A stretch of DNA of 64,000 nt from Oculatellaceae cyanobacterium bins.114 (GCA_033764315.1 JANRJA010000172.1:1-64000); one strand, 5' to 3'. Positions 216 through 4,002 are shown, counted from the stretch's first letter. The notes: generated by a model not told the origin, from the letters alone. A program made the numbers and translations.

Positions 216-1826
216 TTGGTAGTGTCTGAGAGTGCTTTGATTGTTCATGGTGCATTCTTGATAGTTGTGATCTCCAGATTTATCCCACTTGTACGACGAA
301 CTTTATCTCCATTCAGTGGCGTCCGAAAGGTGGCAGCCGTTTTCAGTCAGCCTCTCTTGGGGGCGGGTGCGATCGCCCTCCTGGTTTGTCTATTAACGGT
401 TCACCGATGGACACCCTTACTGCGATCGAGCTTATTGCTCGTTGCGACACTCGGCATTTTAGGAGGATGGCGATCGCTCCATGATGCCTTTCATGATCGC
501 CTGACAGGGTTGCCCAACCGGGCCTTGTTTTTGAAACATTTAGAGCGAGCGATTCGGCAACAGCGGCGGCGACAGAACCAACCGTTTGGAGTTTTTTATC
601 TTGATTTAGATGAATTTCGAGCCTTGAATGAAACGTTAGGTCGGGCTGGGGGTGATCAACTGTTAACGGCGATCGCTCGTCGGCTCAGCAGCTTTTTAGG
701 GTCTACAACGGTTTTAGCGCGAGTTGGGGGCAATGAATTTGTGGCTCTGACCGAGGGCGTGACCACCCCTGATGAAGCGATGCAGCTTGCTGATCGTTTG
801 CACGCTGAAATTATTGCTCCATTTCAAATCAATGACAGAGGCGTGGTGGCGACCGTTAGTATCGGCATTGCGCTCAGTTCAGATTATTTTTGGGCGCATG
901 ATTTGTTAAAGGATGCTCAACTGGCGATGTATCATGCAAAACGCCAGGGAAGAGCCTGTCATGCTGTGTTTCAGCCTCAAATGCGGGTACAGGTTGCCTC
1001 GTTTACTCAGTTGGGGGCTGATCTGCGCTGGGCGATTGAGCGGCAAGAATTGCGCTTGTTTTATCAAGCATTGGTCTCGCTACAAACAAAGCAGATTATT
1101 GGGTTTGAAGCCTTGGTGCGGTGGCAGCATCCAAAGCATGGCTTAATAACGCCTTCAGAGTTTATTCCTCTGGCAGAGAATACGGGCTTGATTGTGGCGA
1201 TTGGGCGATGGACGATTCGTCAGGCGTGTAGTCAACTGTGGCGGTGGCAGCAGGGTCTGCTGATGGAGTCGTCATTGTTGATGAGTGTCAATCTGTCGGC
1301 GCAGGAGTTTTCACAGCCTCATTTGAGCGACTACATTCAACAAGTTTTGCGAGATACCGGTATTGAAGGGCATCGGCTCAAGCTAGAAATTACGGAAAGC
1401 ACCTTAATGAGCGATTTAGAGACGGCGATCGCCACGCTTAACCAAATCAAATCACTGGGCATTCAGATTGGTATTGATGACTTTGGCACGGGCTACTCAT
1501 CTTTAAGCCATTTATATTACTTTCCAACCGATACCTTGAAAATTGATCAGTCATTTGTGCGTCGGTTAGGACATCGTAGCGAAAATGATGAAATTGTCCG
1601 TACCATTATTACCCTGGCTCATAATCTGGGTATGAATGTCATTGCTGAGGGCATTGAAACGCGCCGCCAACTTGATTTGTTGCGATCGCTCAAGTGTGAA
1701 TATGGACAAGGTTATTTGTTCTCGAAACCGCTCGATCGAGAGGCAGCAACCCTTCTTTTGACAGAACAACTTACCGAGCAATGGAATTCTGAGAATCTGT
1801 GCAACGATTTTTTGAGAAGCAGCTAG
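216..1826 (+). CDS. Membrane-anchored GGDEF-EAL protein, probable c-di-GMP phosphodiesterase; start uncertain
   Basis: HDRLTGLPNR, degenerate GGNEF, intact FEALVRW and DDFGTGYSSL, hydrophobic N-terminus. Confidence 0.9.
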   Translation: MVVSESALIVHGAFLIVVISRFIPLVRRTLSPFSGVRKVAAVFSQPLLGAGAIALLVCLLTVHRWTPLLRSSLLLVATLGILGGWRSLHDAFHDRLTGLPNRALFLKHLERAIRQQRRRQNQPFGVFYLDLDEFRALNETLGRAGGDQLLTAIARRLSSFLGSTTVLARVGGNEFVALTEGVTTPDEAMQLADRLHAEIIAPFQINDRGVVATVSIGIALSSDYFWAHDLLKDAQLAMYHAKRQGRACHAVFQPQMRVQVASFTQLGADLRWAIERQELRLFYQALVSLQTKQIIGFEALVRWQHPKHGLITPSEFIPLAENTGLIVAIGRWTIRQACSQLWRWQQGLLMESSLLMSVNLSAQEFSQPHLSDYIQQVLRDTGIEGHRLKLEITESTLMSDLETAIATLNQIKSLGIQIGIDDFGTGYSSLSHLYYFPTDTLKIDQSFVRRLGHRSENDEIVRTIITLAHNLGMNVIAEGIETRRQLDLLRSLKCEYGQGYLFSKPLDREAATLLLTEQLTEQWNSENLCNDFLRSS

Positions 1827-1946
1827 GAAATAGCTCTAAATCTGCTGAAAAAGCAACTATTTCACCGCTCAAGGCTGCAATTGAGCCTGTAGTGCAAGTT
1901 GACAAATTGACAGTGTTTGTGCGGTGAACTTTAATCGTGGTGAAAG

Positions 1947-1985
1947 GGCGTTAGCGTATCCCCGCCAAGAGACCTCGCCAACGCC
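1947..1985 (+). promoter_or_regulatory. Putative structured 5' leader hairpin upstream of a small ORF
   Basis: GGCGTTAGCG...CGCCAACGCC stem with one mismatch and CGCCAA in the apical region; preceded by TTGACA-N17-TTTAAT at 1907-1935. Confidence 0.5.
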
Positions 1986-2012
1986 TGATATCCTTACGGA
2001 TGAAAATTTATT

Positions 2013-2261
2013 ATGCCACAAAATCCCAATTTACAAGATTGGACAACGCCCCTGTCGGTGGAGCTGCCTGCTGCAAAACTTGCCTATCGTGAACGATTGA
2101 CTGTCTGGGCGATCGCCCGTCTTTTACCCAATCTTGAACCCCTTGTGGTTGCTCGTTTTCGCACTCGCTCTGATGCAGATGGCTATCTCAACTCTCTGCG
2201 AAATCGTATGCCCAATGCTCAATTTGTTGTGACTTTTGCCCCTCAGCCCTCTCAAAATTGA
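2013..2261 (+). CDS. Small hypothetical protein (82 aa) of a cyanobacterial family
   Basis: ATG after a GGA element; W-x-I-x-R-LLP...V-x-RFR-x-R-x-DA-x-x-YL-x-x-LR...F pattern that I recall from cyanobacterial small proteins. Confidence 0.7.
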   Translation: MPQNPNLQDWTTPLSVELPAAKLAYRERLTVWAIARLLPNLEPLVVARFRTRSDADGYLNSLRNRMPNAQFVVTFAPQPSQN

Positions 2262-2284
2262 TAGGCTGACGGTAGTTCTAAACA

Positions 2285-2322
2285 AGTAAGGATATGCTGC
2301 GTTCCGCAGGCATATCCTTACT
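2285..2322. terminator. Strong hairpin downstream of the small ORF
   Basis: AGTAAGGATATGC-TGCG-TTC-CGCA-G-GCATATCCTTACT, 13-bp perfect outer stem; no U-tract, so termination is uncertain. Confidence 0.5.
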
Positions 2323-2649
2323 CAAAATCATTACTTTTAGAAGACTACCAGGTTGACAATTACAGCAAAGCTTGGTTGGGTGTTGCAAGATAAACTATCC
2401 CTGGTTGAAACTGACTCGATTTGAAGTCATGCCTTTGACGTTACCTTTAACTTTATGTTAGAGATTGTGCAGTTTGTAAATCTATGGCAAACCTAGCTAG
2501 ATATAGAGGTGCATCTAACAGTGGGTTGTTATAGTAGCGATCGATCAGTGTTAATAAACTTCGATCCCTGTAGCAGTTGCTACTCAGAGAATTTTGACTC
2601 CACTTTAAGCTTTTAGCGGTGGAACTCCTATAACAGTCGAGGATGGTTA

Positions 2650-4002
2650 ATGGCTAAAACCACTGAACAACATCGAGTTGTTATTGTTGGAGGTGGCTTT
2701 GGTGGATTGTATGCCGCTAAAGCATTAGGTCGCGCTCCAGTAGATGTGACCCTGATCGATAAACGTAACTTCCATTTATTTCAACCGTTGCTCTATCAAG
2801 TAGCAACTGGAACCGTTTCTCCCGCTGATATTTCTTCACCGTTGCGTGCCATTTTGAGTCGGCACAAAAATACGCAGGTGTTGATGGAAGAAGTGGTTGA
2901 TATTGACCCAACGCAACAACAGGTGGTGGTCAAAGGCAAAACCGTGCCCTATGACACGCTGATTGTCGCCACTGGAGTCAGTCATCATTATTTTGGCAAT
3001 GACCAGTGGAAGGAGACGGCTCCTGGGCTAAAGACGGTTGAAGATGCACTAGAGATGCGGCGACGTATCTTTATGGCCTTTGAAGCCGCTGAGAAAGAAA
3101 CAGATGCTGAGAAGCGTCGCGCCTGGTTGACCTTTGTGATTGTTGGAGGTGGCCCTACAGGGGTTGAGTTGGCTGGGGCGATCGCTGAACTTGCATTTCA
3201 CACCTTAAAAGAAGATTTTCGGAGTATTGACACCACAGAAGCCCAGATTTTGCTGCTAGAGGGACTGGATCGAATATTGCCCCCCTATCCGGCTGACCTG
3301 TCAGCAGAAGCAGCCGCTTCATTGACTCGGTTGGGGGTAACAGTTAAGACTAAAACCTTAGTCACCAACATTACTGATACCGTCGTGACCACTCGCTGTG
3401 GAGAGCACGTTGAGCAGATCTCAGCACGCACCATTTTGTGGGCAGCAGGGGTCAAAGCCTCGGCTATGGGGCAAGTGTTAGCCGATCGCACAGGAGCACA
3501 GCTTGATCGAGCTGGGCGAGTCACCGTGAGTGCTGACCTGAGCATTCCTAACCATCCCAATATCTTTGTCATTGGGGATCTGGCTAACTTCATTCAAGCT
3601 GATGGTAAGCCGCTTCCGGGTGTGGCTCCGGTAGCCGTTCAAGAAGGTGAGTATGTCGCTAAACTGATTCAAAAGCGGCTCAAGGGACATACACTGCCAG
3701 AGTTTAGCTATGTCAACGCGGGTAGCCTAGCGGTCATTGGGCAAAATGAAGCTGTTGTCGATTTGGGCTTTATCAAATTCTCTGGCATTATTGCGTGGCT
3801 GATTTGGGTCTTTGCTCATATCTACTATTTGATTGAGTTCGACAATAAGCTGATTGTGATGTTGCAGTGGGGATGGAGTTACTTCACACGCAACCGAGGG
3901 GCTCGACTCATTACCGGGGAAGAAGATCTGCTGAAGGTCGAGATCAACGAGAATGGAGAGTTTCATGCGCCATCTCAACCAAAATCAACGGTCGAAGCCT
4001 AA
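2650..4002 (+). CDS. Type II NAD(P)H dehydrogenase (NDH-2 family FAD-dependent oxidoreductase)
   Basis: Two Rossmann motifs (GGGFGG, GGGPTGVELAG), FQPLLYQVATG, WAAGV. Confidence 0.92.
   Translation: MAKTTEQHRVVIVGGGFGGLYAAKALGRAPVDVTLIDKRNFHLFQPLLYQVATGTVSPADISSPLRAILSRHKNTQVLMEEVVDIDPTQQQVVVKGKTVPYDTLIVATGVSHHYFGNDQWKETAPGLKTVEDALEMRRRIFMAFEAAEKETDAEKRRAWLTFVIVGGGPTGVELAGAIAELAFHTLKEDFRSIDTTEAQILLLEGLDRILPPYPADLSAEAAASLTRLGVTVKTKTLVTNITDTVVTTRCGEHVEQISARTILWAAGVKASAMGQVLADRTGAQLDRAGRVTVSADLSIPNHPNIFVIGDLANFIQADGKPLPGVAPVAVQEGEYVAKLIQKRLKGHTLPEFSYVNAGSLAVIGQNEAVVDLGFIKFSGIIAWLIWVFAHIYYLIEFDNKLIVMLQWGWSYFTRNRGARLITGEEDLLKVEINENGEFHAPSQPKSTVEA

Follow-up and report, generated by a model that had tools for sequence, protein, structure and literature searches.

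A conserved CGCCAA-loop stem-loop in the 5' untranslated region of a small-protein gene of filamentous cyanobacteria, and a neighbouring MITE hairpin

Type I toxin-antitoxin mRNAs of the hok/sok type are subject to fold-back inhibition, and ribosomal-protein leaders, the thrS operator and the ompA 5' stem-loop are known autoregulatory mRNA operators or 5' stabiliser hairpins. MITEs (miniature inverted-repeat transposable elements) as such are well known, Nezha being a cyanobacterial one. Conserved RNA structures have been catalogued across 202 cyanobacterial genomes by screening solely the flanks of 931 KEGG-defined orthologous groups (PMC12873609, 2026). We analysed a window of 64,000 nucleotides (contig C71) from the draft genome of Oculatellaceae cyanobacterium bins.114 (G000; 6.64 Mb in 251 contigs), in which a small gene lies between a GGDEF-EAL protein upstream (216-1826) and an NDH-2-type oxidoreductase downstream (2650-4002). 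An initial annotation had described this gene, its promoter, a leader with a CGCCAA loop and a hairpin 3' of the coding sequence as a self-contained cassette, with a 10-nt leader sequence able to pair with the 3' hairpin in the manner of a type I toxin mRNA. Direct reading of the sequence placed the promoter, leader stem, small open reading frame (ORF), 3' hairpin and 10-mer where that annotation had them. The promoter, the structured leader and the gene hold as parts of such a unit, but the 3' hairpin belongs to a MITE insertion flanked by a target-site duplication. It is likely that the locus joins three neighbours of different origin: the gene, the promoter with its leader, and the MITE. 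We read the leader as a new cis-acting RNA element of the 5' untranslated region (5'-UTR), acting on the sense strand.

In the window the leader hairpin has an outer stem of nine base pairs, in which GGCGTTAGC (1947-1955) pairs with GCCAACGCC (1977-1985) and A1953 is mismatched with C1979. The inner helix (1959-1962 with 1969-1972) consists of a U-A pair, a C-G pair, a C.A mismatch and a C-G pair, and it closes the apical six-base loop CGCCAA (1963-1968). Pair counts were taken over 78 distinct leaders. The outer stem was 90.9% paired in these, with changes on both sides in eight of its nine pairs. The first pair of the inner helix was U-A, the second was C-G (55), U-A (16) or U.G (3), and the last was C-G or U.G; the C.A position was unpaired in 71 leaders and U-A in the remaining 7. 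Changes on both sides were observed in 9 of 13 pairs and made up 33 cells, which are not independent events and come from an alignment that was partly found with the covariance model of the hairpin (R1) itself. None of 500 shuffles gave a count as high, and slid controls gave 2-9 cells. The initial annotation had named the lack of a covarying leader among homologues as grounds for rejecting its reading; because the leader covaries, those grounds do not arise. Sense-strand G.U pairs were frequent (17, 14 and 6 cells at three pairs), and R1 scored the antisense strand at 21-25 bits against 50-78 bits for the sense strand. Nucleotide identity was 0.78 in the hairpin and 0.63 in the core coding sequence, and was higher in the hairpin in 56 of 59 comparisons. 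RNAalifold, applied to the full 5' region, gave no structure beyond this hairpin.

The leader is closely associated with one gene family. The 16-mer ATCCCCGCCAAGAGAC (1958-1973) is unique in the genome that carries the window, which also gives a single R1 hit. Within 260 nt upstream of the codon for the conserved Tyr25 in 114 tblastn hits, this 16-mer was present with at most 3 mismatches in 42 and had at least 5 in the other 72, a bimodal distribution; the set of 72 includes loci later shown to carry a variant leader. A second loop variant, AUUCCUACCUAGAAAC, was recovered by R1 in Nostoc. R1 matched 68 of the 80 best protein-profile loci, drawn from 431 tblastn-confirmed loci, and these matches spread across cyanobacterial orders. 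Only 4 of 29 best-per-genome loci of nearer relatives were matched (L084, L085, L087 and L088), most copies there being leaderless paralogues. When the search began from the RNA, R1 matched 27 of 41 genomes of family f32, with one or two hits each, and 6 of 151 genomes in an even sample of the class, G000 included. Two class-wide hits (L121 and L122) were rejected as false, being unrelated terminator-like hairpins. A family ORF followed within 420 nt in 66 of 67 R1 hits. In the lone exception (L245, G182:C123) the MPQN start is kept and an insertion sequence (IS) follows.

Several further observations concern individual leader loci. Reading of the translation at L245 (around 1577-1930) indicates that the ORF is broken after 18 codons by an insertion with a transposase-like protein; the same genome carries a second leader hit, L270. 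At L058 two cassettes of leader and gene face each other within about 700 nt (2903-2955, plus strand, and 3562-3614, minus strand), and the second of these leaders has a G-C to A-U compensation in its stem. Among the 80 loci listed from a metagenome scan with the 16-mer, reading identified two true leaders (L171 and L183) and assigned the others to chance; an automatic filter had flagged L183 only. In the same-genus comparison genome (G001) the ortholog locus (L084) has a leader 93% identical to that of the window over 109 nt, a protein 74% identical, and the same GGDEF-EAL and NDH-2 neighbours. Across orders no neighbour was kept. In Nostocales, a RimK-like ATP-grasp gene (PF08443, E 1.8e-14; e.g. 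L262 159-1199, minus strand) stands divergently upstream of leader-bearing homologues, at 21 of 67 leader loci in total, and five leader loci have a co-oriented 116-aa ORF upstream that has no Pfam family. An integron attC-like reading of the inverted repeat was dropped: the element is single-copy in G000 and always 5' of the gene. It also does not fit what we take to be the attC core-site consensus.

The 82-aa ORF is a real gene, as homologues, profile searches and the core of the AlphaFold 2 (AF2) model agree. Its conserved core spans residues 25-76 and contains the motif RFRxRSDA[DE]G. Eight close homologues were found, and close homologues share Y25, R28, L29, W32, an RLLPN motif, the RFRxRSDA motif, G57, P67, F71 and F75. 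A motif scan of species genomes gave the 431 tblastn-confirmed loci mentioned above, and a profile search of 1.84 billion representatives returned 662 clusters at E ≤ 0.001, of which 310 reached E ≤ 1e-10. Family matches were found in 32 of 41 related genomes, usually several in each and at most 14 (G021); this agrees with the initial annotation, which likened the protein to multi-copy unknowns of filamentous cyanobacteria. G000 has one paralogue, on C166, and its leader-bearing gene is single-copy. G008 has 11 matches, of which four share a contig within a span of 4 kb. Tandem paralogue arrays were observed there (G008:C165:5191-8851, the four matches in 4 kb) and in G007 (G007:C218:2956-4721, two matches in 2 kb), and some paralogues in such arrays contain in-frame stop codons. 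Of the 72 loci whose 16-mer had at least 5 mismatches, a set that includes variant-leader loci, 12 have a divergent gene upstream for a protein with helix-turn-helix (HTH_31/HTH_3) and DUF4351 domains (e.g. L013 2106-2801, minus strand), a hint at two-gene modules for part of the family.

The protein is basic and soluble (isoelectric point (pI) 10.2, grand average of hydropathy (GRAVY) -0.35). Its maximum Kyte-Doolittle value over a 19-residue window is only 1.33, so it has no membrane segment. The AF2 model had a mean predicted local distance difference test score (pLDDT) of 76.7, with residues 30-75 above 90, and shows a soluble alpha/beta protein with the order helix-strand-strand-helix-strand. 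No Pfam match at E ≤ 0.01 was found for any of 68 family members, and the best Pfam hit of the window protein, DUF7697, scored 13.2 bits where the cut-off is 27. Below E 0.05 the window protein and the members tested had no match in NCBIfam, PADLOC or PHROGs, and a sequence profile search of the PDB returned only eL31 (E 0.47). The ESM Atlas and a cluster look-up gave only cyanobacterial 'hypothetical protein' names, as did all public names met. One longer form, a 222-aa protein without a Pfam domain, was treated as a probable gene-calling fusion.

We infer that the leader is probably a protein-binding operator and/or a 5' stabiliser. Its place near the 5' end, its invariant asymmetric loop, its conserved mismatch, its link to one gene and the basic product of that gene together fit a 5'-protecting, protein-binding operator. 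The gene, which encodes a basic soluble alpha/beta protein, would be monocistronic, with its own promoter and 5'-UTR stem-loop. The stem-loop would serve as a sequence-specific operator, possibly bound by the gene's own basic product in a feedback control whose direction we likewise infer, and would also shield the 5' end of the mRNA from ribonucleases. We hypothesise that the gene's own product is the simplest candidate for the loop binder. Autoregulatory operators and 5' stabilisers share with this locus a hairpin near the 5' end of a monocistronic mRNA, a conserved loop, a link to one gene and a basic product, and the likeness would hold if the leader loop is a protein-binding site. They differ in that the protein here has no recognised RNA-binding domain and the leader is unlike any Rfam leader. 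The Rfam scan proposed by the initial annotation matched no family: Rfam 15 gave only two chance rows for window positions 1700-2750 (E 2.3 and 6.2), and the Nostocales homologue L017 (2800-3350) had no match at E ≤ 10.

A small metabolite- or ion-sensing riboswitch or a transcription attenuator is another reading of the leader. In its favour are the absence from Rfam, the extremely conserved loop with its conserved non-canonical C.A, and a U-rich run after the hairpin in some homologues (L026 and L058). We consider this very unlikely. What is supported is one hairpin with an inner helix and a C.A mismatch, lacking a conserved junction or pseudoknot; the U-run is not general among homologues, and nothing about the downstream gene points to a ligand.

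A number of points weigh against reading the leader as an RNA operator. Its folding energy is unremarkable (z -1.7; 13 of 200 shuffles fold as well). Most stem positions are nearly invariant, so the covariation rests on a minority of the sequences, and the 16 U-A cells at pair 25/37 are probably one event in one Nostoc clade. A first count, over 31 distinct sequences, found 2 pairs, and 9 of 500 shuffles reached the observed number of both-side cells; RNAalifold alone, on 35 sequences, gave only 8 invariant pairs. The transcription start, the 3' end and expression are here predictions. RNA binding by the 82-aa protein is a candidate role and a hypothetical one. Foldseek returned a de novo design at best (E 0.22), then RbcS chains, and VIA-align returned ClpS (Z 4.7); because no match stands out in either search, no fold is assigned.

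Some homologues, moreover, have GCGTTA-like boxes upstream of the -35 element, in keeping with a leader that acts as DNA. It would then be an operator array for a transcription factor with GCGTTA-type half-sites, formed by the inverted pair 1949-1954 / 1980-1985 and a box upstream of the -35. The arms are indeed nearly invariant (GGCGTTA / TAACGCC), palindromes like TAGCGCTAAGT or CGTTAAGTAT repeats lie directly upstream of TTGACA in many homologues, and divergent HTH genes adjoin some paralogues. We nevertheless regard a DNA operator as unlikely. Compensation (C-G to U-A, G-C to A-U, U-A to C-G and A-U to G-C) keeps the arms complementary to each other and does not keep a fixed half-site. The common G.U pairs of the sense strand would be A.C on the other strand, on which the R1 score is far lower. 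A conserved asymmetric loop of about 20 nt with a covarying inner helix is also unexpected between half-sites.

The hairpin downstream of the gene (2285-2322), whose arms match perfectly over 13 nt, forms the core of a MITE. Copies of the element end in GGTAGTCCT ... AGGACTACC, and the unit length is 79-81 nt. G000 contains 35 places that cover at least 69 of the 79 nt at 85-100% identity. Of 25 other genomes, G001 yielded no copy and G012 a single near-full one; the matches in G028 and G031 were weak and partial. As read from the printed flanks, direct repeats of 7-8 bp stand beside 9 of the 11 copies listed, that of the window included. The duplication is clear in C125, C76, C85, C219, C174, C55, C8 and C33 and unclear in C250 and C113; examples of target duplications are CAAATTTA, CCCAATTT, CATGACTT and CGTTATCT. 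Paired changes that keep the hairpin were observed among copies, namely GTCAGG/CCTGAC (C55 and C33) and GCAAGG/CCTTGC (C8). The folding energy of the element is -31.7 kcal/mol (z -7.1). The inverted repeats, target duplications, dispersed copies and paired hairpin-keeping changes are defining features of a MITE, and the element is one. It shares with prokaryotic MITEs (reviewed in PMC10969869 and PMC3184786) small non-coding size, terminal inverted repeats, 7-8-bp duplications, dozens of copies and a hairpin formed by the whole element.

It differs from them in two ways. The G000 draft yielded no autonomous IS sharing its ends and no enriched end spacing beyond 50-100 nt, and near-full copies occur only in G000 and once in G012 among the 26 genomes searched. 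The missing autonomous partner means little, because the draft is in 251 contigs and IS copies are often left unassembled. The sequence after the stop codon of the G001 ortholog has nothing MITE-like and carries a different hairpin with a U-rich tail. The MITE landed two bases past the stop codon, duplicating 8 bp, in a recent insertion. Partial matches in G000 (C134, C35, C251, C97, C158 and others) begin inside the element (2309-2315) and extend as far as its right end; they may represent half-elements, or else another repeat family with that end in common.

According to the initial annotation, the transcript could switch between local pairing and long-range 5'-3' pairing. The sequence ATATCCTTAC stands both at 1988-1997 and at 2312-2321, with its complement at 2286-2295, and the match extends to 15 of 18 nt. 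We compared the 5'-UTR with 150 nt of 3' flank at 69 leader-bearing loci, with flanks swapped among loci as controls. The longest perfect complement was 5-8 nt in 68 of the 69 loci and 10 nt in the window only. Its mean length was 6.52 nt, against 6.56 nt in the swapped controls, where 7 of 1352 pairs had at least 10 nt. A complement of at least 9 nt was thus found in 1 of 69 loci, as in the controls, and the proposed switch is not supported; the initial annotation had named a lack of conserved 5'-3' complementarity as refuting its proposal, and the complementarity is not conserved. The initial annotation had itself allowed that a 10-bp match could be chance, and the agreement with the swapped flanks confirms this. 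In G000 the 10-mer occurs 67 times (about 15 expected), as 25 perfect-arm pairs and 17 singles, of which 10 lie in degenerate MITE copies. Only seven occurrences, 1988-1997 among them, lie outside the MITE family, which is the background frequency. The counterpart in G001 reads ATGTCCTTAC. The leader and the MITE arm are complementary by coincidence.

These results bear on whether the locus could be a type I toxin-like mRNA in which the local fold alternates with pairing of 1988-1997 and 2286-2295 to control translation. Its small ORF, own promoter, structured leader and, in this genome only, 5'-3' complementarity near the ribosome-binding region are shared with the hok/sok type. The match of up to 15 of 18 nt is real and lies directly upstream of that region, and the protein family is multi-copy in many genomes. 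We give this explanation almost no credence. The 3' partner is a transposon with a target duplication, of which no copy was found in G001 and none lies after the stop of its ortholog, and the complementarity is no more frequent than in swapped controls. In the predicted fold of the whole transcript, both the minimum free energy (MFE) and the centroid structures keep the 17-bp hairpin closed locally. The leader-bearing gene is single-copy in G000. The toxin analogy also fails on testable features of the protein, which is basic and soluble and, by the pI, GRAVY and hydropathy values given above, has no hydrophobic or membrane segment. No antisense promoter-like site was found in 1750-2700, which is weak evidence on antisense RNA.

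In this strain the 3' end of the transcript may now be set or stabilised by the MITE hairpin. Leader-MITE pairing could also have been co-opted in this species, so that the hairpin terminates transcription or stabilises the 3' end and its 5' arm can occasionally sequester the CCUUAC box. The hairpin is very stable and lies 24 nt past the stop codon, no other terminator-like site follows the stop within 1750-2700, and the G001 ortholog has its own U-tailed hairpin at a comparable place. Co-option nonetheless seems rather unlikely to us. No U-tract directly follows the MITE hairpin (its tail is UCAAAAUCAUUACUUUU), a terminator scan does not call it, and a 10-bp duplex is energetically unfavourable against the opening of a 17-bp hairpin. 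The scan makes a single terminator-like call in the region, at the HIP1 palindrome GCGATCGC (2106-2119) inside the ORF, which is a typical cyanobacterial repeat and no terminator.

Table 1. Features of the leader, gene and MITE region, in window coordinates
Feature	Position	Strand	Basis or remark
Tandem TTGACA hexamers, TTGACAAATTGACA	1899-1904 and 1907-1912	+	Sequence; second hexamer is the likely -35
TTTAAT, likely -10	1930-1935	+	17-nt spacer after second TTGACA
Conserved 5'-UTR stem-loop	1947-1985	+	Covariance model R1, window score 54.9 bits
Conserved box CCTTACGGAT and A/T-rich spacer before start codon	1992-2012	+	GGA is the likely Shine-Dalgarno sequence
Gene for 82-aa basic soluble protein	2013-2261 (ATG 2013, TGA 2259-2261)	+	Homology, AF2, profile searches
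Left target-site duplication, AGGCTGAC	2263-2270		7 of 8 positions match AGGTTGAC
79-nt MITE, terminal inverted repeats GGTAGTTCT / AGAAGACTACC	2271-2349		Copies, flanks, folding
Right target-site duplication, AGGTTGAC	2350-2357		Printed flanks

The promoter elements (Table 1) are conserved to different degrees. The -35 TTGACA is invariant across 39 aligned homologous upstream regions, and the tandem form TTGACAATTGACA recurs upstream of L006, L032, L085, L087 and L088. The tandem hexamers may serve as a site for a regulator or provide an alternative -35. The -10 box CTTTAATC is kept in one homologue group of the upstream alignment. The distance from TTGACA to the -10 is 17-18 nt, with TTTAAT in one homologue group and TAACAA in another. 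A sigma-70 scan of the region did not call the promoter, because TTTAAT lacks an A at position 2. With TTTAAT taken as the -10, transcription is predicted to start near 1942-1944, and the hairpin would begin 3-5 nt from the 5' end. A palindromic box abuts the -35 (1890-1899); it reads TAGTGCAAGT in the window, ACTTAGCGCTAAGT at L026 and TAGCGCTAAGT in many Nostoc, and it is also present at L062. Direct repeats like CGTTAAGTAT stand in place of the palindrome just 5' of TTGACA at L017 and L019. The palindromic box resembles the GCGTTAG of the leader stem.

Between the hairpin and the start codon, CCTTAYGGATAA and AATCATGCCACAAAA are kept in homologue alignments of the region 1992-2012. This region overlaps the 10-mer, whose CCTTAC half is part of the conserved leader box CCTTAYGGATAA. 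An AUCC/GGAU mini-hairpin of five pairs in the window fold (1989-2001) was set aside, as reading of the alignment showed that it is not conserved in homologues. A 50-aa antisense ORF (1869-2021, minus strand) overlaps the promoter and leader and is open in G001 too (67 aa). Conservation of the DNA for the leader is the simplest explanation for it.

The PMC12873609 catalogue concerns objects of this kind, namely conserved RNA structures that flank an orthologous cyanobacterial gene. Its main text makes no mention of hypothetical, uncharacterised or small proteins, and its supplementary lists may overlap with the leader through a neighbouring KEGG gene. The leader loop sequence does not occur in the searchable literature, and a search for literature on small or hypothetical multicopy Nostoc proteins with a 5'-UTR found none. 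As no description of the motif was found, we take the leader to be a new cis-acting RNA element of the 5'-UTR, on the genes of an uncharacterised protein family.

The analysis sets a chance, transposon-derived feature apart from a constrained one, and it illustrates that MITE hairpins next to genes can mimic regulatory architecture. What remains is a stem-loop whose loop hardly varies and which is linked one-to-one with a widespread cyanobacterial small-protein gene that no library names. It opens a way into a family that comprises several hundred sequence clusters. At about 40 nt the leader is a compact candidate regulatory RNA, directly testable by reporter fusions in model Nostoc. Tentatively, and as a possibility we would not yet favour, the CGCCAA-loop hairpin may be a cyanobacterial mRNA operator of a new class, with the small basic protein as a new kind of RNA-binding protein that recognises the loop. 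If this is true, the two would form a self-contained feedback module that was inherited across filamentous cyanobacteria while leaderless paralogues diversified.

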